Shown here piece by piece: positions 3,017 to 56,257 of a stretch of DNA of 64,000 bases. The position numbers and the translations under genes are program-made. Where the stretch lies: assembly GCA_965226495.1 (NCBI GenBank), contig OZ245365.1, positions 416,001-480,000 of the forward strand, given 5' to 3'. The notes under the pieces are model-generated. The model was not told where the DNA came from, ran no database searches, and worked only from the letters and a program-made list of their open reading frames with translations. Origin of the DNA: Candidatus Marinacidobacterales bacterium. GTDB lineage: Bacteria; Acidobacteriota; Vicinamibacteria; Marinacidobacterales; DATDRI01. Each line of letters starts with the position of its first letter. Position 1 is the first letter of the stretch.

Positions 3017-7231
<4,215 letters not shown>

Positions 7232-7349
7232 GTGCTAAGGGCACGGCACTCTGCGCGAGGAGCCATCAGCTGGCCCGAAGATGCCGAAAAAGCCGCTCTG
7301 GGCGCGGGAAATCGACCCGGAGCGGGCGCAACTTGTTATGGAAGAATCC

Positions 7350-7378
7350 TTGACAGGCTTTAACGGCCCTGCTAGACT
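7350..7378 (+). promoter_or_regulatory. sigma70-type promoter of the str/S10 superoperon
   Basis: TTGACA-N17-TAGACT with extended -10 TG, about 90 bp upstream of rpsL. Confidence 0.75.
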
Positions 7379-7469
7379 CGTCAGGTTGTGCTCTTGCAGG
7401 GCCGCCGGCCCTGCATTGCTATCTCTGGGCGGCTCAACAGCTTAAGGGAAATTACGGGAGTAGAAACTT

Positions 7470-7844
7470 TTGCCAACAATCAGTCAGCTGGTCCGCAAGG
7501 GCCGTAAGAAGCTGAGCTCGAAGACCGACAGCCCGGCACTCCAGGGGAGTCCGCAAAAGCGTGGCGTGTGTGTCCGTGTCTTTATCTCGACCCCCAAGAA
7601 GCCGAACTCGGCCCTTCGGAAAGTGGCAAGAGTAAGACTGACGAACGGAATCGAAGTGACGACGTACATTCCCGGGATTGGGCATAACCTGCAGGAGCAC
7701 TCGATCGTCTTGATTCGTGGCGGTCGTGTGAAGGATCTCCCTGGGGTTCGCTACCACGTCGTCCGTGGCGCATTAGACGCAGTTGGCGTTCAGGATAGGA
7801 AAAACGGCCGCTCCAAATACGGTGCCAAGCGGCCCAAAGCGTAA
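7470..7844 (+). CDS. rpsL: 30S ribosomal protein S12
   Basis: [10 protein letters not shown] and [12 protein letters not shown]; TTG start. Confidence 0.99.
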
Positions 7845-7867
7845 AGAAGTTTTGAGAGTTTCGGCCA

Positions 7868-8338
7868 ATGCCTAGACGAAGAGAAGTACCGAAGGCTGAA
7901 GTCAACGCGGACGCACTCTACAACAGTGTGCTTGTCTCGAAGTTCATCAACGTCGTGATGAAGGAGGGCAAGAAAAGCACCGCCGAGACGATTGTTTATC
8001 GCGCCTTCGACAAGATGCGCGAACGTGCCGATGAGGATCCGCTCAAGCTCTTCAAGAAGGCGGTCGACAACGTTCGGCCGTCGCTCGAGGTAAAGAGCCG
8101 CCGCGTGGGAGGCAGCAACTATCAAGTCCCCGTGGAGGTGAGGGTCGAGCGTCGGACATCACTTTCCCTGCGCTGGCTCGTGAATCAGGCACGCAACCGG
8201 CCCGAAAAGACGATGATCGAGAAGTTGGCTGGCGAGTTGCTCGACGCGGCCAATAACCGAGGCGGCGCAGTTAAGAAAAGAGAAGACACCCACCGGATGG
8301 CAGAGGCTAACAAGGCTTTTGCTCACTACCGCTGGTAG
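7868..8338 (+). CDS. rpsG: 30S ribosomal protein S7
   Basis: [11 protein letters not shown] and [13 protein letters not shown]. Confidence 0.99.
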
Positions 8339-8450
8339 CCAGCGGACCGGAAACATTAGAGCTCGGTGTCGTCCGGACCTCCCGAATCCGGCGGCGAACG
8401 GGCTTTTGAGGCCAGAGACGGGATATCCGTTCCTATAGAAGCAGTGTCCT

Positions 8451-10529
8451 ATGCCTAGATTAGTTCCTTTAACCAAGACGCGTAACATCGGCATCATGGC
8501 GCACATCGATGCGGGGAAGACGACTACCACCGAGCGCGTCCTGTACTACACCGGTATTACCCACAGGCTCGGTGAAGTGCACGAGGGCACGGCCACTATG
8601 GACTGGATGGAGCAGGAGCAGGAAAGGGGTATCACCATTACCTCGGCTGCTACCACCAGCTTCTGGCGCGACTACCGGATCAACATTATCGATACCCCAG
8701 GTCACGTCGACTTCACCGCGGAGGTAGAACGGTCCTTGAGGGTGCTGGACGGGGCGGTCGCCGTTTTCTGTGCCGTAGGTGGGGTCGAGCCCCAGTCGGA
8801 GACCGTCTGGCGGCAGGCGGATCGGTACCAAGTACCGCGCATTGCTCTCGTCAACAAGATGGACCGCACGGGGGCTGACTTCCAACACGCGGTAGAGATG
8901 ATGCGGACACGATTGGCGGCCAACGCGATTCCAATCCAGCTGCCCATCGGGGCGGAAGAGAACTTTGCGGGTGTCATCGACCTCATCAGTATGAAGGCGG
9001 TGCGCTACCTCGACGAGACACGCGGCGCAGAGTTCACCGTAGAAGAGATATCCGAGGATCACCTTGAGGCTGCGAAGGCCGCGCGGGACAAGCTTATCGA
9101 GGCCGTGAGCGAAGTTGACGACCACCTCATGGAACGTTACATCGAGGGAAAGACCGCCTCCAATGAGGAGATCGCGGCCGCCCTGCGCAAGGCAACCATC
9201 AGTCTCCAAATCGTGCCAGTTTTGTGCGGCTCCGCCTTCAAGAATAAGGGGATCCAACCTTTGCTGGATGCGGTGGTGGATTACCTCCCGTCCCCAGTCG
9301 ATGTTCCGGCGATCGTCGGCATCGATCCGGAAAAGGACGCAGAAGTGGAGAGAGCGGCTAATGACGACGCTCCTTTCTCCGGTTTGGTGTTCAAGATTCT
9401 CACCGATCCATTCGTCGGGCAGTTGGCCTTTTTCCGCGTCTACTCCGGGGTCTTGAAAAGTGGCTCATACGTTCTCAACGCGACGCGTGACAGCCGCGAA
9501 CGCATCGGACGAATCCTCAAGATGCACGCGAACAAGCGCGAGGACATCAAAGAAGTCTATGCCGGTGACATTGCCGCCGCGGTCGGCCTGAAAAGTGTTC
9601 AAACTGGCGACACGATCTGTGACCAGGACCATCCCGTCGTTCTGGAGTCGATGGAGTTTCCCGAACCGGTCATCTCGGTGGTCATCGAGCCCAAGACCAA
9701 GGTGGATCAGGAAAAACTAGGATTGGCCCTAGGCAAGCTCACTCAGGAAGATCCGACCTTCAAAGTCTTTAACGATCAGGAGACAAGCCAAACCATCATT
9801 AGCGGCATGGGAGAGCTTCACCTCGAGATCGTCGTCGACCGATTGCTCCGCGAATTCAACGTGGCCGCCAACGTCGGCAAGCCACAGGTCGCCTATAAAG
9901 AGACGATTCGCAAGAGTGTCAAAGCGGAAGGTCGCTACGTCCGTCAGACGGGAGGTCGTGGCCAGTTCGGTCACGTCAGGATCGAGATCGAGCCGATTCC
10001 GGGGCAGAAGTTCGAGTTCGCGAACGTTATTCGTGGTGGGTCCATTCCGCGCGAGTACATTTCGTCGATCGAGGCGGGCATCGTGGAAGCGATGGAGCAT
10101 GGCATCCTCGCCGGCTATCCGATGGTAGACATCAAGGTGAACCTCTACGACGGTTCCTACCATGAGGTGGATAGCTCGGAAATGGCATTCAAGATTGCTG
10201 GCTCCATGGCTTTCAAGGAGGCGGCTCGCAGTGCCGATCCAGTCCTCCTCGAGCCGATCATGCAGGTGGAAGTCGTGGTTCCAGAAGACTATATGGGTGA
10301 GGTCATTAACGATCTCAATTCCCGTCGGGGTCGCGTGACCGGCATGTCCGCCCGCAATAATACCCAAATCATTGGTGCCAACGTCCCGCTCGCCGAGATG
10401 TTTGGCTATGCCACCGATCTTCGTTCCGCCACCCAGGGACGCGCTACCTACACGATGCACTTCGCTGAGTATCAGGAAGCGCCCAAGCAAGTGGGCGAGG
10501 AAGTCGTAGCCAAGGTGCAAGGCCGTTAG
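8451..10529 (+). CDS. fusA: Elongation factor G
   Basis: [27 protein letters not shown]; position in str operon. Confidence 0.99.
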
Positions 10530-47443: not shown

Positions 47444-48811
47444 ATGGCTGAACACCACGTCGTAATCGGCGGCAACGCTGCCGGAATGACCGCGGCGTCC
47501 CGTGCAAAGCGACTCTCTCCGTCGCTCTCCATCACGGTTCTCGAATCGAGCCGCTATATCTCGTATAGCATCTGCGGTCTACCCTACTGGTTGGGGGGGC
47601 GCATCTCGCGCTTCGACGACCTCCTCCATTTTTCTCCGGAACGCCTTCAAAACGAGCGAGGGATATCGGCCCGGATCGAGACACGTGCGGTCGAGATTCT
47701 TCCTTCAAGACGCTCGGTGGTCGTCGAAGACCTGCGGAACGGCAAAAAGGAGATCCTGAAGTACGACAAGCTGTTGATAGCCACCGGATACAAGTCCACC
47801 CCGCCCGATATCGAAGGCCTAGACGCCTCCGGGGTCTTTACCGTCAGTCGAATCGAGCACGGAGAGGCCATCGGCCGGTGGCTCGATTCGGGGCGAGTGA
47901 AGCGAGCGGTTCTAATCGGAGGGGGCTACGTGGGTTTGGAGATGGCGGAGGCCTTCCGTGAGCGGGGGGTTGACGTCACGCTGGTAGAGAAATCGCCCGC
48001 CGTGTTCCCAGCCGTCGATCCCGACATGGCTGCGCCGCTGGAATCGGAGCTCGAGGCAAAAGGCGTCCGCGTCATGACCCGTCGCGCGGTGGGGCGCATC
48101 CTATCCCGTCCCGATGGCTCTGTGGAAGGAGTGGAGTTGGTCGGAAGTGGACACCGGCTGCCCGCCGATCTCGTGCTTGCAGACGTCGGCGTGGCGCCTC
48201 GAGTGGAGCTGATAGCGGGTTCGGGTATCCAGCTTGGAGCAAGTGGCGCGATCGCGGTCTCAGAGCGGATGGAGACGAATGTCTCGGCCGTATACGCGGC
48301 GGGGAATTGTGCAGAGGCGGTGAATCTTGTCACCGGCAGGCCAAGCTTCGGCCCGCTCGGAACGGTAGCTGCCAAACAGGGGCGCGTGGCGGGAGAGAAC
48401 ATGGCGGGCAGGGTGTCCTATTTCCGCGGGGCGGTGGGAACCACGGCGGTGAAGGTCTTCGGCCTTGTCGCCGCACGAACCGGTCTCACGACCGAGCAGG
48501 CAAAGCGAGAGGGGTATCGAGTCGTAGAGGCCCGGGTGGAAGGCCGTTTTAAAGCCTCCTATTTCGGAGCCGAACCATCGGTGGTCAAGGTACTCGCCGA
48601 TCCGGAAAGTCGCCGACTTCTGGGTGCCCAAATCGTAGGCAGCGATTTGGCTGCGGTGCGGATCGACGTCGTGGCGACGGCGCTCGCCGCAAAAATGACC
48701 GTGGACGAGGCCGCCCAGCTAGATCTCACCTACACACCGCCGGTGGGAACCCTTTGGAATCCGTTGCTGGTCGCAATGAACCTGCTACTGCGACGCCTGG
48801 ACGAGCGCTAG
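47444..48811 (+). CDS. CoA-disulfide reductase / NADH oxidase family flavoprotein
   Basis: GGNAAGMTAA, SYSICGLPY redox Cys, GGGYVGLE, DLTYTPP. Confidence 0.92.
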   Translation: MAEHHVVIGGNAAGMTAASRAKRLSPSLSITVLESSRYISYSICGLPYWLGGRISRFDDLLHFSPERLQNERGISARIETRAVEILPSRRSVVVEDLRNGKKEILKYDKLLIATGYKSTPPDIEGLDASGVFTVSRIEHGEAIGRWLDSGRVKRAVLIGGGYVGLEMAEAFRERGVDVTLVEKSPAVFPAVDPDMAAPLESELEAKGVRVMTRRAVGRILSRPDGSVEGVELVGSGHRLPADLVLADVGVAPRVELIAGSGIQLGASGAIAVSERMETNVSAVYAAGNCAEAVNLVTGRPSFGPLGTVAAKQGRVAGENMAGRVSYFRGAVGTTAVKVFGLVAARTGLTTEQAKREGYRVVEARVEGRFKASYFGAEPSVVKVLADPESRRLLGAQIVGSDLAAVRIDVVATALAAKMTVDEAAQLDLTYTPPVGTLWNPLLVAMNLLLRRLDER

Positions 48812-48893: not shown

Positions 48894-49412
48894 CTAGCGG
48901 ATGCCTTGAGACCGAGCAAGAGTCGGCTGCTCTCCCGGAAACTCCCTAACGTCCTCTTCCAGTGGCAGGGTGTGCCGATTGATGGGGGAGGACAGCACGA
49001 TGGTCGTCTTGGTGCGTAGTGTACCCGGTATGTCTCTGATCCTTTGCAGGAGCAACTCGAGCGTTCGAGGGTTCTTCGTAATGACCCGAGCCATGTAGGT
49101 TTCCTCCCCCGCAACACTGAAACACTCTTGAACCTCCGAGATACCAGCGAGTCTTCCTTCATATTCACGCGAAGGGACACTACCGCTTGTGGTGATGCTG
49201 ACGAAGGCACTGATCTCGTATCCCAGGGTGGAAGGATTGACCGAAGCGGAGTAACCCTCGATGATTCCAGTGCGTTCGAGCTTCTTGACTCTGTCGTGAA
49301 CGGTAGGAGCGGTTAAGCCAACCTGTGCCGCCAGCTCTGCGAACGTACTTCGTCCTTTGGAGAGGAGCGCTTTGAGAATCTGTCTATCGATAAAGTCAAT
49401 AGGCGGGTTCAT
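48894..49412 (-). CDS. Lrp/AsnC family transcriptional regulator
   Basis: DRQILKAL...ELAAQVGLTAPTVHDRVKKLE, ECFSVAGE. Confidence 0.92.
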   Translation of the reverse strand: MNPPIDFIDRQILKALLSKGRSTFAELAAQVGLTAPTVHDRVKKLERTGIIEGYSASVNPSTLGYEISAFVSITTSGSVPSREYEGRLAGISEVQECFSVAGEETYMARVITKNPRTLELLLQRIRDIPGTLRTKTTIVLSSPINRHTLPLEEDVREFPGEQPTLARSQGIR

Positions 49413-49623
49413 GGAATTCCACAACCGAAAAGAGGAGGCAATCCTAGCCGCTCCATGTCTATGAGTCAACCCCGGAACCCAAAAAAATCCAGTCGGTCGG
49501 AAAGGCGATCGAGAGGTGGGGAAGAGTGAAGCATCTGCAACTCTCGGGCCACAAAGTCGGCCCTGATGACGCAAGGGTCGGCCGAGGTTCGGAAGAGAAA
49601 GATAGACTGCTTGGACTTAGTGC

Positions 49624-49950: not shown

Positions 49951-49996
49951 TGAGCCTCCATTAATTAATGCTCGCTCGCCTCGTTCATCCAATAGT

Positions 49997-50078
49997 GCGA
50001 TGGGGCCCCACCCCCATCGCTAGTCGCTTCGCCCCTTCGCGCTCCGCGACAGCTGAGGGCTCATCGCTCGCAGCCCTC
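49997..50078. repeat. Structured REP-like element (GGGGCCCCACCCCC hairpin + CAGCTGAGGGCTC)
   Basis: GCGATGGGG-ccccac-CCCCATCGC perfect stem; motifs recur at 58781 and 60445-60533. Confidence 0.75.
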
Positions 50079-50228
50079 GCTCTTCAATCAATGGTGCGGG
50101 GCTGCGCTCGGGCCAAAAAACATAGCTGTTGCACCTTACAAATGCCACAATTTGGGCCCGACATGCAAGTCCCGTGCGGAGGATGTACTCTATGGGTTGG
50201 CGATGGACACTATTTGCGGAGGCGATCG

Positions 50229-50852
50229 ATGAGCTTTCTCCTTTCTTTCATGCTTTTCCTGGCAGCCCCACCGACTCCGACGGCATCGAGCGCGGAGGAG
50301 GCCGGCAAAACAACTATCTTGGTGGCCTACTACTCCGAAACCGGGAATACCGAGTCGCTGGCTAAGGCAATCGTGGAGGGGATCTCCTCGGTTCCAACTG
50401 CCGAGCCCATTTTGCGGAACGTTTCTGAGGTGAAGGACGAGGACATTCGGAAGGCGGACGGCATTCTCGTGGGCACCCCGGTCCAATGGGGCGGTCTCAG
50501 TGCCCGTGCCAAGGACTTTGTGGATCGAGTGGGTCGCGTATTGGGTGAAGGCGAGGGACAACACGGGGAAGGGCGAACGGCGGGCGCGTTCTGCACCGGG
50601 GGAGCTGTGGCGTCGGGCAAAGAGCTCGCTAGAATGGCGATCCTAGCCGCCTTTATGAACATGCGTTTTGTCGCGGTCGGAGGTCTCCTCGCGGACGGGT
50701 TAGGCAGCCTCGGCGCGGAAGCCACTACCGGGCCCGCCGATCCGGGACTTTCGGAGAAAGAGTTGGGGGAGGCGCGCCTGGCTGGCGAACGCTTTGCTCG
50801 GATTACACAGGGGTTTCGGAAAGCGCGGGCCCTTAGCCCAACACCAAACTAA
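50229..50852 (+). CDS. WrbA/flavodoxin family protein with hydrophobic N-terminus
   Basis: YYSETGNTESLA, ADGILVGTPV, AGAFCTGG; GGAGG RBS before ATG 50229. Confidence 0.85.
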   Translation: MSFLLSFMLFLAAPPTPTASSAEEAGKTTILVAYYSETGNTESLAKAIVEGISSVPTAEPILRNVSEVKDEDIRKADGILVGTPVQWGGLSARAKDFVDRVGRVLGEGEGQHGEGRTAGAFCTGGAVASGKELARMAILAAFMNMRFVAVGGLLADGLGSLGAEATTGPADPGLSEKELGEARLAGERFARITQGFRKARALSPTPN

Positions 50853-51030
50853 CGACCCCGGCAAGGAGTGCCGCAAGCGGAAGTGTCAGGACCCAGGACG
50901 CCACGACTTGCCGGATAACCCCGACGTCGGCTTGCGCCGTGATGAGGCCGATTCCGGGTAGAGCTCCGCAAGGCACGGGAAACCCGAGGAGGGTCGCCAA
51001 GAAAACAGTGAGAGCGGCTCTGCGGATGAG
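50833..51030 (-). pseudogene. C-terminal remnant of a PiT-family phosphate/anion transporter
   Basis: AALTVFLATLLGFPV-PCGALPGIG...VVASWVLTLPLAALLAG matches the PiT C-terminal repeat with the PVSTTH signature eroded. Confidence 0.6.
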
Positions 51031-51049
51031 AGTCGCGAAGCTCGCGAGC

Positions 51050-52213
51050 TCAACAACAGTCTCCATCCGGGCCACAGTACGGCGCGTCGGTCGTCTCGGT
51101 GACGTTATACTCCGTGCCCTTGGTCTCCTTCGGGTGTCGTACGGCGTCTTTCCGACAATTGAACGGAGCCGCTTCCGATAGGGGAGTGTCCTCGTAGGGT
51201 TCCAGCGGCTCGATCGTGCCGCGGTAGGGCTCTGAGCTATAGATGTGAAAGGTCTTGTCGCAAACCGCCATGCGCTGGCCTCGGAACAGAGTGTGGCCGT
51301 CGTCGTCGGTCACGCTGCGCCAGGGTCCCTTATAGATGACAGCCTGGTGGCGTTCGAGGCACGGACCTTCCTTTCCCTTGAAGGCTTCGACGGTCACGGC
51401 GCGGAACTCGATCCCCTCTATCGTTTGCCACGGCGTCTCGTCGCGTTTCAATACTTGGATTCCGTAGAATCCGGCTTCTTGAAAAGCGGTCAGGAAGTGA
51501 TCCTCCCGAAAGGCCCCGGACAGACAGCCGCTCCATAGCTCCGCATCAGCCTGAAGGTGAGCTGGCACGTCCTCGTCGCTCACGATGTCCGAGATCACAA
51601 CGCGACCGCCTTTCCTGAGGACACGATGCATTTCTCGAAAGAGCTCGGTCTTGTCCTCGGGCCGGACTAGATTCAGCACGCAGTTGCTCACCACCACGTC
51701 GGTCGACGCCGTGGGGACCATCGGGTGGTTTCGTCGTTGGTCCTCCTTCCAGCTCTCTAGAGCTTCGAGCTCATTCGCAGTTGTGACGGGGTGCTCGGCC
51801 AGGTAGTGCTCGAGCTTTTCATAGTCTAGGGCGAGGTCTTGAATCTTGCCTTTGTGAAAGGCGACGTTGTGATAGCCGAGCCGATCGCCGATCTCCTGAC
51901 GATAGCGTCGCGCCAGGTCGAGCATCTCGTCGTTCATGTCAACGCCGATGACCTTGCCCTCCGTTCCGACAACTTGGGCGGCGATGTAACAAACTTTGCC
52001 TCCGCCGCTTCCAAGGTCGAGGACCGTCTCGCCCGGGCGAAGGTGCTTGGAGGGGTCTCCGCATCCGTAGTCGCGCTCTAAGATCTCCTTGGGGAGAGCA
52101 TCGAGATACTGTTCTGCGTATTCCACAGGGCAGCAAAGGGCGTCTTCTTTTGCGGAAGCCGCCCTCGAGTAACGGTCTTTGACGGCGTGTTCGACGTTGG
52201 AACTGTCAGCCAT
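51050..52213 (-). CDS. ArsM/AS3MT-like arsenite S-adenosylmethionine methyltransferase (extended)
   Basis: LCCPV, DYGCGDP, VLDLGSGGG, SNCVLNL, WSGCLSGA; Cys-rich tail CGPDGDCC. Confidence 0.85.
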   Translation of the reverse strand: MADSSNVEHAVKDRYSRAASAKEDALCCPVEYAEQYLDALPKEILERDYGCGDPSKHLRPGETVLDLGSGGGKVCYIAAQVVGTEGKVIGVDMNDEMLDLARRYRQEIGDRLGYHNVAFHKGKIQDLALDYEKLEHYLAEHPVTTANELEALESWKEDQRRNHPMVPTASTDVVVSNCVLNLVRPEDKTELFREMHRVLRKGGRVVISDIVSDEDVPAHLQADAELWSGCLSGAFREDHFLTAFQEAGFYGIQVLKRDETPWQTIEGIEFRAVTVEAFKGKEGPCLERHQAVIYKGPWRSVTDDDGHTLFRGQRMAVCDKTFHIYSSEPYRGTIEPLEPYEDTPLSEAAPFNCRKDAVRHPKETKGTEYNVTETTDAPYCGPDGDCC

Positions 52214-52249
52214 GGGCTTCGTCTCCTATTATCCCGTCTGATGTTTTTC

Positions 52250-53062
52250 CTAGAACTTGCCTCGTTTACGTTCCTTTGAGGGCAAAATCTCCAGACACGT
52301 CGTCCACCATCCGGTGAGGACGGTGTCGATGAACTCCTGAGGTAGTCCCTCGCTATTCATTTCTTGGGCGAGACTGCGGTAGTCGTATTCGAGCGGCACG
52401 AACTCGACGGACAACCCTTTCCGGCTCTTCTGGCCCTTCCGTGCATCCAGTATCGTGTACCAAACATGCGTATTACCGTCGTTCTCCGGCCGCCCGATGA
52501 CCCCGACATTGACGACGTGTCGGTCTCCCGGAACTTCGCGCTTCCAGTGAATGCCGGTATGGGTCGTGAGCACGACATCCGCCTCATGTTCTTGGAGCAG
52601 ACGGTCCAGAAAGTGAGTGGGTGTCGTCGACTCCCATAGAAACTCGTTCATCTTGCGTGGTGAGCCGTGGCTCATCAGAAGACGATGGCTACCCAGTTGG
52701 ATACGAAAAGACTTTGGTAGTCCACGCATCCACACTTTCCAGCGGTCGGAGGTGTTGGAGAACGTGTAGTCATAAGAGATTTTGGCGAAGTAGTTGTCGC
52801 GGGGATCGACATAGCCACATTGGCAGTCGGCGAGCCCCTCTCCGATCGAGTTGTCATAGTTGCCCTGCATCACCTGGACGCCGGCGTCCAACAGAATCGG
52901 AAACACTTTGTCCGGGTTGGGGCCGAAGGCGCCGAGGTCGCCCTGACAGAAGATCGCCTCCACTCCTCGCCGCCGCGCGTCGTTCACCGCTGCCTCGAGC
53001 GCGAGGTGGTTGCTATAGACGCCGCCGATGGCAGCGATCCTTTCGTAGCGCTCAAGAGACAT
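52250..53062 (-). CDS. Calcineurin-like metallophosphoesterase, atypical motifs
   Basis: GGVYSN, GDLGAFG, GNYD, SHGSP, THTG, NVGVIG. Confidence 0.85.
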   Translation of the reverse strand: MSLERYERIAAIGGVYSNHLALEAAVNDARRRGVEAIFCQGDLGAFGPNPDKVFPILLDAGVQVMQGNYDNSIGEGLADCQCGYVDPRDNYFAKISYDYTFSNTSDRWKVWMRGLPKSFRIQLGSHRLLMSHGSPRKMNEFLWESTTPTHFLDRLLQEHEADVVLTTHTGIHWKREVPGDRHVVNVGVIGRPENDGNTHVWYTILDARKGQKSRKGLSVEFVPLEYDYRSLAQEMNSEGLPQEFIDTVLTGWWTTCLEILPSKERKRGKF

Positions 53063-53957
53063 CGCGGCCTCCGGAGCTCAGATTGCTGCAGATGGCCCCT
53101 CCCACGTAACAGGTGTAACAGGCACTGTGCTTGAGAGGGTAGGGTTCGGCCGATTCGGCCAGCGTGGATCCCATCCTCGCGTCCGGCGAATCGATGAGGA
53201 TCGGGCAGACGTAGACGCCTCGGTCGGTGGCGACCCGACTGTGGGAGCAGATGAGTTGGGAGGCGTCGAAACCCAACATCATGTCTGATGTCACCCGTTC
53301 CGTATCGGTGTAGGCACGCGACCTCTCTTCTTCGGCGCCGATGCGTAAGGTCGGGATGATCTTGATGCGGGGACGAGAGTAGCCTTCCGCCTTTAGTATT
53401 TCGACGAAACGTTGAAACACTTCGTCGTCCCGACCGTCTTCCCAAGTCTGGGCCACTGTGATGATGGGGAGGAACCCATGGGTCAGTAGGAGCCGAACGC
53501 CGTCCATGGCTTTGCGAAAGGTTCCTGCCCCTCGGATGGGATCGTTCATCTCCGGGGAGTACCCATCGATGCTGACGCGAAACTCGAGCGAATAGGGCGA
53601 TATCGCCTCCGCCGCAGCGAGACGCTCCACCTGCTTGGGCTTCATCACGGTGGCGTTGGTGAGGACGGTCGCGGGGCCGATCGAAAGCGTGGCTTCGAGG
53701 ACCTCGACCATGTGGGGATGGATGAACGGCTCCCCGCCTGTGAAGTAGTACTCCTTGACCCCCAGCGATTTCGATTCCTCGAGGAGGCTCTCGATGGCTC
53801 CGAGGTCCATGAGCTCGAACGCGTGGTTGGTCGGGCTACAGGAGATGAAGCAATGGGCGCAGGTCAGGTTGCAGAGCGTTCCCGATACCTGAAACCAGAG
53901 GTCGTCGAGCGCACTCAAGGCGACTCGCGGGGGAGCTTCGGCGGTCCGGGTCGTCAT
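53052..53957 (-). CDS. Radical SAM enzyme
   Basis: CNLTCAHC, FTGGEPF, RVSIDG; additional C-terminal Cys cluster. Confidence 0.92.
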   Translation of the reverse strand: MTTRTAEAPPRVALSALDDLWFQVSGTLCNLTCAHCFISCSPTNHAFELMDLGAIESLLEESKSLGVKEYYFTGGEPFIHPHMVEVLEATLSIGPATVLTNATVMKPKQVERLAAAEAISPYSLEFRVSIDGYSPEMNDPIRGAGTFRKAMDGVRLLLTHGFLPIITVAQTWEDGRDDEVFQRFVEILKAEGYSRPRIKIIPTLRIGAEEERSRAYTDTERVTSDMMLGFDASQLICSHSRVATDRGVYVCPILIDSPDARMGSTLAESAEPYPLKHSACYTCYVGGAICSNLSSGGRDVS

Positions 53958-55174
53958 GACGCGTACCGATCCACAGCAGATGTTTTTTCGATCGAGCTGA
54001 AGATCTCTCGAACTTGCTCGAGCCCGATCCGAATCAAGAAGTTGGAGTTCTTGCCATAGCTCTTCGAGCCGAGGACAAAGAAATTCGGTTCCGGGTTCGC
54101 AAGGACATCGGCCCGGTGGAATTCATTGGCAAGGCAATCCGCCGAGCTCGACCCGAGAAGAGCCGCCGAAAGCTTCATCGGGCCCATCGACGCATAACAC
54201 TCATGCATCTGGAGCTCCCGATAGATTCGGTTGTCCGGATGGTAACCCACGTAGGCCAAGATGCGATCGACCACGATCGTCTCTTGGCTTCGTGTCCCTA
54301 TGGAGCGAAGCTCGACCGCGAACGATTCTCCTCTGCGCGTCTTCCTCGTCAGGCGCTCGACGAGGGTGGCAGGATGGTACGCGACCCTAGGATTCCCGCC
54401 TTTGGCAAGCTCGTTGGCCTTCGCGGAAAGCCGAGCCCTTTCGGGAAGTGGATCATCCGGGAAGATGGGTAGGGGAGGCTTCTCGCCGGTTTGGGCAATC
54501 CACGTCACTGACGTGTTTGGCAATTGGGTGAGCGCATCGAGTGCCGTGGCGGCGGAGTGCCCGCTGCCGACGAGGAGAACTCGCCGCCCCGAGTACTGCT
54601 CGCGTTTCTCGCCCAAGAGGTCCTGCACGGTGTAGGCGATCTGCTCACGGAGCTCTATTTCGCCCAGAGCCGGGATGTTGCCGTTGCCCATCCAGTTGTG
54701 ATGGCCGTAGGTTCCGGAACAATCGATCACGATGTCTGCCTCGGCGATCTCTTCTCCTTGCTCCCGCTCGAGCAGAATGCGAAACGGATGGCGGTCCCGA
54801 GGACCACCGATCAGATCTTTCTTGCCGATACCGTCTCTCCCGACGTATAGCACTTCGACTCCCTCTCGAATGCAGTTTCTCAGCGGTTCGGTTTCGGCTA
54901 GGGGCCGAAGGTATCGCTCCACGTGCTGTCTTCCCGTCAGGTAGTCGTTCGGCCCGGGCAGAGGTCGGCCCGCTTCCCGAAGCGTCTTCGCTCCAAGCTC
55001 GGAGTGGTTGAGCTCCCAGCATGAGAAGAGGGTGATATGTCCCCATCGATTCATGTTCTCGCCGATGGTTCCTCGTTCGTATACCTGAACCCGATGACCG
55101 AGAGCCTGGCCGTGTAGGGCGGCTTCGAGGCCGACGGGGCCCGCGCCGATAATCGCAATACGTTTCCCGGGCAT
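53954..55174 (-). CDS. FAD/NAD(P)-dependent flavoprotein monooxygenase, ars-operon (ArsO/ArsV-like) type
   Basis: GAGPVG, DCSGTY, GSGHSA, EPNFFVLGSKSYG...FL...GLEQVR; GGAGGAG RBS. Confidence 0.8.
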   Translation of the reverse strand: MPGKRIAIIGAGPVGLEAALHGQALGHRVQVYERGTIGENMNRWGHITLFSCWELNHSELGAKTLREAGRPLPGPNDYLTGRQHVERYLRPLAETEPLRNCIREGVEVLYVGRDGIGKKDLIGGPRDRHPFRILLEREQGEEIAEADIVIDCSGTYGHHNWMGNGNIPALGEIELREQIAYTVQDLLGEKREQYSGRRVLLVGSGHSAATALDALTQLPNTSVTWIAQTGEKPPLPIFPDDPLPERARLSAKANELAKGGNPRVAYHPATLVERLTRKTRRGESFAVELRSIGTRSQETIVVDRILAYVGYHPDNRIYRELQMHECYASMGPMKLSAALLGSSSADCLANEFHRADVLANPEPNFFVLGSKSYGKNSNFLIRIGLEQVREIFSSIEKTSAVDRYAS

Positions 55175-55231
55175 AAACTCCTCCCCGCACAAGGCGGGAA
55201 TTATAAATAGAGTGGAGATCTAAGACGGACT

Positions 55232-55273
55232 GCCCGCCTTCGCTTGGGTTAAGGGGCTGTAGCTTCGGCGGGC
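55232..55273. repeat. REP-like hairpin in the DUF2064-flavoprotein spacer
   Basis: GCCCGCC(TTCGC)...(GCTTC)GGCGGGC inverted repeat. Confidence 0.6.
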
Positions 55274-55282
55274 TGGGGCCGT

Positions 55283-56029
55283 TTAGGCCGTGGCCTCAGG
55301 CGGAGCGCGGGGGGTAAACCACCTGGCGAGGAAAACCTGCCGATGTTCGGTTTCGGCGGATCGGTGGCCGGTCGATTCGGGGAGGAGCAGATTTGTGATC
55401 CGCCGTGCTAACGAAGCGAGACATCCCCATCGCGAGCGGGTGAGAAAGCGAGTCAGCCCGCGTCGGTCGTCGATATCTTCGAGCGAGGAAAGTGTCTCGA
55501 CCACGAAACCACTTCCGACGAGGCGCGCTTGCGTGAGCTGCGCAACCTGCGAAGATCCCCACGGCATGGACTCGAATGCTTCGGGGCAAGGTGTCGTAAG
55601 TCCGAGCAGGGCGTATCCGCCGTCCTTGGCCGGACCGAGCACCGCCGCGCGAGGGCCAGATGAGGCAAGGGCGTCGAACGCGTTTCCCAGGTAACGTCGC
55701 GAGATCTCCGGAGAATCGTTGCCAATTACCACGACGCGGCGGTAGCCCAGCGAAAAGGCGTCGTCGACTGCCAGTCGTAACGACTCGCCGAAGCTCCGGC
55801 CTCGCTGTGGGAGGACGTTCCGCCGCCGGTTTTCAGCAAGCTCTGAAGACAGCGGGGTGGCGATGAGGAGATCCACGTCCTGGAGCCCACCGCAAACGTT
55901 CTCCAAGTGGTCGAGAAGAACCGCGAACACGTCGGCGGCTCGCTCCGGCCTTCCTAGGCCGAGCGACTTCCTACGACCCTCCGCTTCGGGAGACAGCGTA
56001 AACAGAATGAGTGCGGATTCGGATCCCAT
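55283..56029 (-). CDS. DUF2064/TIGR04282-like GT-A (glycosyl/nucleotidyltransferase) protein with C-terminal RAPP motif
   Basis: PQRGRSFGESL, VVVIGNDSP, LGPAKDGGYALLG, MPWGS, LEDIDD; tail ...FTPRAPPEATA*. Confidence 0.85.
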   Translation of the reverse strand: MGSESALILFTLSPEAEGRRKSLGLGRPERAADVFAVLLDHLENVCGGLQDVDLLIATPLSSELAENRRRNVLPQRGRSFGESLRLAVDDAFSLGYRRVVVIGNDSPEISRRYLGNAFDALASSGPRAAVLGPAKDGGYALLGLTTPCPEAFESMPWGSSQVAQLTQARLVGSGFVVETLSSLEDIDDRRGLTRFLTRSRWGCLASLARRITNLLLPESTGHRSAETEHRQVFLARWFTPRAPPEATA

Positions 56030-56257
56030 CGTTCGCAATCTACAAGGAGAGCATGCTTCGGTCTATGGAAAGGCTCACACCCGGCGCAGAAAGACCTGCA
56101 CCCACCATTCTTATCACTGGCCGCTAGGGGGGTCAACGAGAAGCTCCCAAACGAGGCCGTGCCAGTCCCAAGGTGGTCGGGGGCCCCAACTCGCCTTTGG
56201 AAAATAGGGCGCTACGGAATATGCTGTGGCGAACGCAATAGGGAGAAAGAAGCATAG

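Follow-up and report, generated by a model that had tools for sequence, protein, structure and literature searches.

We analyzed a gene cluster in a 64-kb stretch of DNA (hereafter the window; host contig positions 416001-480000) from a Candidatus Marinacidobacterales bacterium and, as it pairs an arsenic methyltransferase with an uncharacterized radical enzyme in place of the arsenosugar enzyme ArsS, its probable role is to make or transform an organoarsenic compound along a route not yet described. The cluster spans 50833-56038 of the window, with all six features on the minus strand, and combines an ArsM-type methyltransferase with an enzyme of the radical S-adenosylmethionine (SAM) type (rSAM), a metallophosphoesterase-fold (MPE) protein, a flavoprotein, a DUF2064 protein and the remnant of a PiT transporter. 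From the sequence comparisons below we consider it likely that this is a variant of the ArsM-ArsS (arsenosugar-type) cassette in which a three-gene module has replaced ArsS, and that the module is a third rSAM system, made of two subunits, which works together with ArsM on trivalent arsenic. Exchanges with ArsS at a shared locus, protein fusions, co-occurrence across genomes and synteny speak for the arsenic reading, and the same evidence upholds the proposal of the first-pass annotation that ArsM paired with an rSAM other than ArsS or ArsL marks an undescribed organoarsenical cluster.

A conserved unit built on ArsM and a radical SAM enzyme

Read along the minus strand, the cluster begins with a 251-aa DUF2064/TIGR04282-like transferase (55283-56038) with a GT-A or nucleotidyl-transferase-like fold, followed by a 412-aa NAD(P)/FAD flavoprotein of the Pyr_redox_2/3 type (53954-55192), the 301-aa rSAM enzyme (53052-53957), an atypical 270-aa MPE protein (52250-53062), the 387-aa methyltransferase (51050-52213) and an 80-aa remnant of a PiT (PHO4) phosphate/arsenate transporter (50833-51075). 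Open reading frames and family matches agree with the co-oriented set that the first-pass annotation had read here, PiT remnant included, and the overlaps it had noted among the middle three genes measure 4 nt between the flavoprotein and rSAM genes and 11 nt between the rSAM and MPE genes; the PiT remnant shares a further 26 nt with the 3' end of the ArsM gene. The DUF2064 frame offers an alternative ATG start at 56029, its fourth codon. The order of the five genes (DUF2064, flavoprotein, rSAM, MPE and ArsM) is kept in nine of the 14 loci fetched from relatives, so the proposed check of neighborhood conservation shows the genes together elsewhere; since the order recurs, the cluster is not a product of chance, and the five genes form a conserved unit. 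In six relatives' loci (L016, L018, L019, L023, L025 and L126) ArsM or the rSAM is truncated or lies in two frames, through gene decay or assembly frameshifts; we did not count these split pieces as decay, as they may be assembly errors. Scanning for promoters and terminators returned no more sites than shuffled sequence did.

The methyltransferase has a class I SAM-binding domain (Methyltransf_31, PF13847, 99.5 bits, cut-off 27), and all four ArsM/AS3MT cysteine motifs earlier quoted for it are present, as CC (residues 27-28), YGCG, SNCVLNL and WSGCLSGA. C51, C178 and C230, in YGC, SNC and SGC, align with Cys72, Cys174 and Cys224 of the Cyanidioschyzon ArsM structure (4fr0/4kw7), and C27 and C28 fall near the position of the first As(III)-binding cysteine. 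All five residues are invariant in 15 of 15 aligned sequences, one canonical ArsM among them, and the alignments indicate that the protein has the four As(III)-binding cysteines of ArsM/AS3MT. Its best NCBIfam match is the arsinothricin-type ArsM model NF040538 (352.2 bits, cut-off 500), which covers it in one stretch, insertion included, followed by PRK11873 (NF008823; 200.7 bits, cut-off 263) and NF038099 (135.9 bits, cut-off 400). Subtype alignments reveal an insertion of about 36 aa (residues ~130-165), a C-terminal domain and a cysteine-rich CGPDGDCC tail, hallmarks by which we assign the enzyme to a distinct ArsM subtype.

The rSAM protein matches Radical_SAM (PF04055, 65.9 bits) and carries the motif LWFQVSGTLCNLTCAHC, a CX3CX2C at residues 29-36 whose cysteines C29, C33 and C36 are invariant; with a partial TIM-barrel core, this places it in the radical SAM superfamily. 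Cys40, Cys237, Cys251, Cys280, Cys283 and Cys290 are conserved as well. No NCBIfam model covers either this protein or the MPE, the best match of the rSAM being the Rv1681 family (103.8 bits, cut-off 380). Placement against profiles bore out the earlier impression that it is not a canonical ArsS: it scores 56.7 bits on TIGR04167 (cut-off 300) and matches model positions 15-148 only, the rSAM core, versus 444.8 bits for the true ArsS of a related genome (G004), and shares 26-28% identity with a true ArsS along some 140 residues. A TIGR04167 profile search of the host genome found no ArsS, the best match being this rSAM at 55.9 bits. We likewise rejected ArsL, which was compared by published description only, on the length of 301 aa, the position of the motif at 29-36 and the C-terminus CYTCYVGGAIC. 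The rSAM is thus neither ArsS nor ArsL. Its AlphaFold2 (AF2) model (pLDDT 91.3) ends in a cysteine-rich beta-hairpin/helix region typical of auxiliary-cluster domains, and the top Foldseek matches are SkfB, BlsE, SuiB, anSME and MoaA (E 1e-12 to 1e-8, TM 0.5-0.67) at 15-20% sequence identity. Five conserved C-terminal cysteines, together with the modeled fold matches to SkfB, BlsE and anSME, point to a twitch/SPASM-like C-terminal part of the kind that holds an auxiliary Fe-S cluster.

Exchange with ArsS, protein fusions and genome co-occurrence

We compared 80 metagenome loci whose ArsM is 56-77% identical to that of the window. ArsS adjoins ArsM in 42 of them, this rSAM (at least 49% identity) in six, both in none and neither in 32; restricted to the 27 loci that extend 3 kb or more to either side, the counts become 17, four, zero and six. 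All six rSAM-bearing loci have the MPE and five have the flavoprotein. Other neighbors of this ArsM subtype are PiT (18/80), DUF2064 (17/80, mostly with ArsS) and a TIGR04283-like GT2 transferase (12/80). Both partners also occupy one chromosomal position, beside hisN: the window's genus has DUF2064, flavoprotein, rSAM, MPE and ArsM there, and G004 has the same five genes plus its true ArsS overlapping the end of ArsM. Sister genera have ArsS there in place of the flavoprotein, rSAM and MPE genes; in G005 the order runs DUF2064, a flavoprotein remnant of 38 aa, ArsM, ArsS. A single ArsM subtype has either the rSAM module or ArsS as its alternative partner, and the window's cluster, rather than being an isolated invention, belongs as a variant to a widespread ArsM-PiT-ArsS-TIGR04282 cassette. 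From that cassette the window retains the ArsM subtype, the DUF2064/TIGR04282-like transferase and, in decayed form, the PiT.

Fusion proteins tie the same parts together covalently. Each of the 64 long rSAM homologues found at E <= 1e-40 is fused to a cluster partner, as rSAM-ArsM (47), ArsM-rSAM (2), flavoprotein-rSAM (13, with the flavoprotein N-terminal) or rSAM-MPE (2), so that ArsM, the flavoprotein and the MPE are each found joined to this rSAM family. ArsM models were the best match for seven of the seven fused methyltransferase halves scanned, and 47 of the 49 methyltransferase fusions have all four ArsM cysteine motifs. All nine cysteines of the family persist in the fused rSAM domains, with each present in 63-65 of the 65 rows formed by the 64 fusions and the window protein. 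One further fusion, an 830-aa frame at 6691-9183 on the minus strand of locus L026 (G055:C1), joins a SPASM-like rSAM (~115-450) to ArsM (519-821, PRK11873 234.9 bits) and adjoins a DUF2064 gene and PstC. Its rSAM lies on a branch of length 10 in the rSAM tree and was taken as a different rSAM from outside this family, perhaps one more type that is coupled to ArsM.

Co-occurrence was scored across genomes in two orders. Of 101 Pirellulales genomes, 32 have the ArsM subtype, 24 this rSAM and 17 ArsS. The 32 genomes with the subtype carry the rSAM only (17), ArsS only (11), both (2) or neither (2), and 60 of the 69 genomes without it have neither rSAM type. Counted from the other side, 19 of the 24 rSAM genomes have the ArsM subtype; in the 84 genomes without ArsS, it is present in 17 of 22 with the rSAM and in two of 62 without. 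Within the window's home order, 15 of 61 related genomes have the rSAM and 13 have the ArsM subtype, the latter with the rSAM only in ten, ArsS only in two, both in one and neither in none. These tallies of 61 include the unpublished genome G007, which has ArsS and neither the rSAM nor the ArsM subtype; no conclusion rests on it. The presence of TIGR04283 does not discriminate between the rSAM types, since it is found in 56 of the 61 relatives whichever is present. Linkage to ArsM requires at least seven changes on the rSAM tree, which argues that it recurs in several lineages and is not one inherited accident.

The family as a whole comprises 6816 proteins at E <= 1e-10 among 8000 candidates scored, all generically named, and at least 586 loci in species-representative genomes. 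Adjacent to the rSAM in the best 80 of these loci are the MPE (67), the flavoprotein (48), DUF2064 (15) and ArsM (8), and from these counts we take rSAM and MPE as the core. Variants of the locus add, in Bacteroidota, Ignavibacteriota and Calditrichota, a phosphate-selective porin with an SSS-like transporter; in Planctomycetota, a DAO oxidoreductase; and in Gemmatimonadota, an HD-domain protein. The family is large and genetically tied to ArsM in several phyla. In L051, L050, L068, L075, L095 and L070, loci from Bacteroidota, Ignavibacteriota and Calditrichota, phosphate-selective porin O/P and a membrane protein of about 460 aa lie on the flanks of the rSAM-MPE core. The membrane protein has no Pfam match and only a weak SSS-symporter match; considered as a relative of the flavoprotein, the upstream protein of this length in Bacteroidota loci proved unrelated. 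A Pyr_redox_2 enzyme and a NapH-like ferredoxin are present in some of these loci as well.

Partner proteins, proposed chemistry and rival readings

The MPE belongs to the calcineurin-like family (Metallophos_2, PF12850, 38.8 bits, cut-off 27), and its fold is nearest to SapH (TM 0.72-0.80), PH1004 and PF1291, with Vps29 after these in the Foldseek ranking. The metallophosphoesterase assignment of the first-pass annotation therefore stands for the fold and fails for the catalytic motifs: motif I has Gly14 and Tyr16 where Asp-x-His would stand (its GGVYSN pairs in the alignment with SDIHGN in 3qfm and SDVHAN in 3rqz), GNHD has become GNYD, and the dinuclear-metal motif is missing. Among 68 sequences, at least 95% keep the altered residues G14, Y16 and Y69, and all 68 keep four cysteines, C39, C80, C82 and C256. 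A complex prediction for rSAM and MPE scored 0.91 versus 0.01 for the best control, a score that expresses the model's confidence and is not a measurement; the mark applied to such predictions is reached by 58 of 80 solved complexes and by two of 110 mismatched pairs. Contacts agreed to at least 92% between runs, with partner pLDDT of at least 93. The MPE is thus predicted to be a partner subunit of the rSAM enzyme. Hydrolysis of phosphoesters by it is doubtful, because the catalytic motif has been replaced and because it is a predicted rSAM subunit; its cysteines may hold an arsenical or As(III), or an Fe-S cluster.

The flavoprotein is a generic enzyme with two dinucleotide domains (Pyr_redox_3, 43.2 bits), whose sequence matches in the PDB span the N-terminal dinucleotide fold only and whose Atlas matches are generic flavoprotein clusters. 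Its motif EPNFFVLGSKSYG had been called typical of flavoproteins in ars operons, which we could not confirm; on the ArsO model NF040505 the protein scores 20.4 bits (cut-off 425) and it is not of ArsO type. The flavoprotein call itself holds; beside its earlier description as an extra oxidase, electron donor is at least as fitting a role, because the protein is fused N-terminal to the rSAM in 13 homologues. We take it as a candidate for a dedicated rSAM reductase, or for an oxidase. The DUF2064 protein matches PF09837 at 93.5 bits (cut-off 25.8) and TIGR04282 at 116.5 bits (cut-off 134).

The 80-aa frame after ArsM matches the PHO4 profile at positions 290-350 of 350 (28.8 bits, cut-off 33.7), and so covers the last ~60 residues of a PiT transporter, whose full length is about 350 profile positions. 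No PHO4 match at E <= 1e-5 exists in the whole host genome. The same-genus genome G002 has, in the same position after ArsM, a frameshifted PiT in two pieces, and the 80-aa frame is 74% identical over 27 aa to the C-terminal one; G034 retains a 33-aa trace, and in L061, a locus from Calditrichota, the cluster includes a complete PiT of 392 aa between the rSAM and the MPE. The 80-aa frame is a real PiT remnant.

Taken together, these components allow a scheme in four steps. ArsM would methylate As(III) to methylated trivalent arsenicals, as its family membership and conserved cysteines suggest. A heterodimer of rSAM and MPE would then carry out the step equivalent to that of ArsS, a SAM-derived radical placing a further carbon group on trivalent arsenic; that group might be adenosyl, which is what ArsS attaches, or a different one. 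The flavoprotein would feed electrons from NAD(P)H, and the DUF2064 protein would decorate the product downstream. In its full form, to which we give somewhat less than an even chance, this makes the module a third rSAM family that forms C-As bonds, after ArsS and ArsL: two-subunit, with a degenerate four-cysteine MPE partner and its own flavoprotein reductase, making an organoarsenical not yet assigned to any gene, and widespread in Planctomycetota, Acidobacteriota, Gemmatimonadota, Calditrichota and Bacteroidota, as well as in anaerobes as rSAM-ArsM fusions.

Several observations weigh against an arsenic-specific, ArsS-equivalent module. The window's ArsM scores below every NCBIfam family cut-off, no model groups the rSAM with ArsS or ArsL, and the nearest folds of the rSAM are peptide- and nucleoside-modifying enzymes. 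ArsM adjoins the rSAM in only eight of the best 80 species-representative loci, and other loci carry the porins, SSS-like transporter, DAO oxidoreductase or HD-domain protein described above. No match to the ArsM subtype was found in five of the 24 Pirellulales genomes and four of the 15 home-order genomes with the rSAM, a count that covers this subtype alone and includes many incomplete metagenome-assembled genomes. Mutual exclusion of the two rSAM types across all Pirellulales is unconvincing (both in two genomes, 4.0 expected), and the alternation there is seen only within the genomes that have the ArsM subtype. At genus level in the home order (both 1, rSAM only 8, ArsS only 10, neither 9; one-sided Fisher p = 0.042), the signal is weak and comes from related genomes; for the same reason, Fisher p-values for the co-occurrence counts overstate their significance. 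Adhaeretor mobilis has both this rSAM and ArsS, with its genes scattered: the rSAM gene lies at 4.007 Mb, the ArsM copies are found at 4.171 and 4.922 Mb, the MPE gene at 4.858 Mb and the ArsS gene at 4.924 Mb. Of its two ArsM-subtype copies, one (G061 C1:4922352-4925312) lies directly beside ArsS and the other (4170743-4171891) stands alone, with no cluster members near it; G163 also has two copies, one beside ArsS. These two-copy genomes are consistent with one ArsM copy per rSAM type.

Among rival explanations, the one that survives best is still unlikely: the module would act on arsenic with ArsM and form no C-As bond; it might instead cleave such bonds independently of oxygen, reduce pentavalent organoarsenicals, carry out thiolation or modify the carbon part of an arsenical. 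Genetic linkage to ArsM is silent on which reaction takes place, the twitch-type rSAMs that are its fold neighbors mostly abstract hydrogen from carbon substrates, and a flavoprotein and a cysteine-rich partner would also suit redox handling of arsenicals. Set against this, none of the 48 metagenome loci that hold either rSAM type holds both, and ArsS replaces the module at the syntenic locus, which points to an equivalent role; moreover, a demethylating enzyme fused to a methyltransferase, as in the 49 fusions, would be futile.

We give a somewhat smaller chance to the idea that the rSAM-MPE(-flavoprotein) module belongs to a non-arsenic pathway with a phosphate, phosphonate or nucleotide-like substrate, its link to ArsM and PiT reflecting shared regulation under phosphate or arsenate stress. 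Such a pathway would account for the 72 of the best 80 rSAM loci that lack an adjacent ArsM, for neighbors such as phosphate-selective porin O/P (6-7 loci), the SSS-like transporter (10), PstC (G055) and the HD-domain protein (4), and for an MPE fold nearest to an Ap4A hydrolase. It fits poorly with the covalent ArsM-type fusions, in both domain orders, that make up 49 of the 64 long homologues, with an MPE devoid of the catalytic Asp-x-His, and with a co-occurrence with the ArsM subtype that holds when the genes are far apart, as in Adhaeretor, where the rSAM (4.007 Mb) is separated from the nearer ArsM (4.171 Mb) and the MPE (4.858 Mb). That the methyltransferase is an ordinary arsenite-methylation detoxification gene standing by chance beside unrelated genes is very improbable: ArsM by itself gives methylation-based detoxification in many organisms and the host has other solitary ArsM-like genes, but the gene order conserved across genera, the fusions, the stop/start overlaps and the alternation with ArsS contradict it.

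The surroundings of the cluster and the rest of the host genome were also inspected. As the first-pass annotation had stated for arsR, arsC and acr3, the 64-kb window has no profile matches to Acr3, ArsB, ArsC or HTH_5 (ArsR type). Elsewhere, the genome has two further ArsM-like genes and ArsC-like genes; its canonical ArsM and its TIGR04283 gene sit among housekeeping genes, with no ars operon there. An ArsM-like gene at C1:5785500-5786180 (L223 7603-8214) has one in-frame TGA, and the part before it best matches the ArsM selenoprotein models NF041537 and NF041536, so that a selenocysteine-containing ArsM is possible. ArsC-like matches of the low-molecular-weight (LMW) phosphatase type at C1:810591-810968 and 839173-839550 have identical scores of 124.2 bits and lie 28.6 kb apart, which suggests a duplicated segment; a third, partial match lies at 843573.

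Convergent with the cluster is a flavodoxin/WrbA-like gene (49968-50852, plus strand; FMN_red and flavodoxin matches at residues 116-239), which adjoins the cluster also in G002, G006 and G014 and is possibly accessory to it. Translation of it probably starts at an internal codon, after which comes a hydrophobic stretch resembling a signal peptide. Although flavodoxins are the classical reductants of rSAM enzymes, an exported one would not fill that role. Farther out are an Lrp/AsnC regulator (48894-49574) and, at 47444-48811 on the plus strand, a pyridine-nucleotide disulfide oxidoreductase with a dimerisation domain, 25% identical to the product of the Pyr_redox_2 gene that follows the MPE in Bacteroidota loci.

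Significance and comparison with known systems

To our knowledge, many environmental organoarsenicals have no known genes. Should the module form or remodel C-As bonds, the arsenic cycle would gain a new class of enzyme, its genes could serve as markers of arsenic speciation in metagenomes from the sea and from soil, and the natural rSAM-ArsM fusions would be handy targets for biochemistry. Adhaeretor mobilis HG15A2, a cultured carrier, makes the question directly testable. A literature search that covered few subscription journals found no description of this rSAM family, its MPE partner or the rSAM-ArsM fusions, and in the consulted portion of a review from September 2026, ArsS and ArsL are the only rSAM enzymes given for arsenic-carbon chemistry.

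The ArsM-ArsS arsenosugar pathway resembles the cluster in many respects. In Synechocystis, ArsS adenosylates DMAs(III) to 5'-deoxy-5'-dimethylarsinoyl-adenosine, and ArsS proteins (TIGR04167) occur together with TIGR04282 and TIGR04283. Shared with the window are the ArsM subtype (beside ArsS in 42 of 80 loci), the DUF2064/TIGR04282-like and PiT companions, the chromosomal position occupied by the ArsS version in G004 and G005, and an rSAM of similar size with an N-terminal CX3CX2C. The systems differ in that the window's rSAM comes with two partners absent from ArsS loci, the MPE-fold protein and the flavoprotein, and in that no TIGR04283 transferase lies in the window's cluster, one being found 1 Mb away.

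The arsinothricin system of Burkholderia gladioli (arsQML) likewise couples an rSAM, ArsL, to ArsM, and the arsinothricin-type model NF040538 is the best match of the window's ArsM, though below its cut-off. According to the consulted portion of its description, ArsL has 428 aa with CX3CX2C at 194-201 (PMC8552651), unlike the 301-aa window rSAM with its motif at 29-36, and the cluster has no ArsQ permease. In the parts consulted of a second report, the C-terminal RCCLKC of ArsL binds As(III) (PMC13598754); by analogy, the cysteines near the C-terminus of the window's rSAM could do the same.

Twitch/SPASM enzymes (SkfB, BlsE, anSME, SuiB and MoaA) share with the window's rSAM its predicted fold and C-terminal cysteine-rich region, but identity is 15-20%, no gene for a peptide or nucleoside substrate lies nearby, and the partners are ArsM, the MPE-fold protein and the flavoprotein. 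Calcineurin-like phosphoesterases, both the YfcE/SapH type and the non-catalytic Vps29, share with the MPE its fold (SapH TM 0.72-0.80) and the PF12850 family; the MPE is set apart from them by its missing Asp-x-His, GNYD in place of GNHD, four invariant cysteines and predicted binding to the rSAM.

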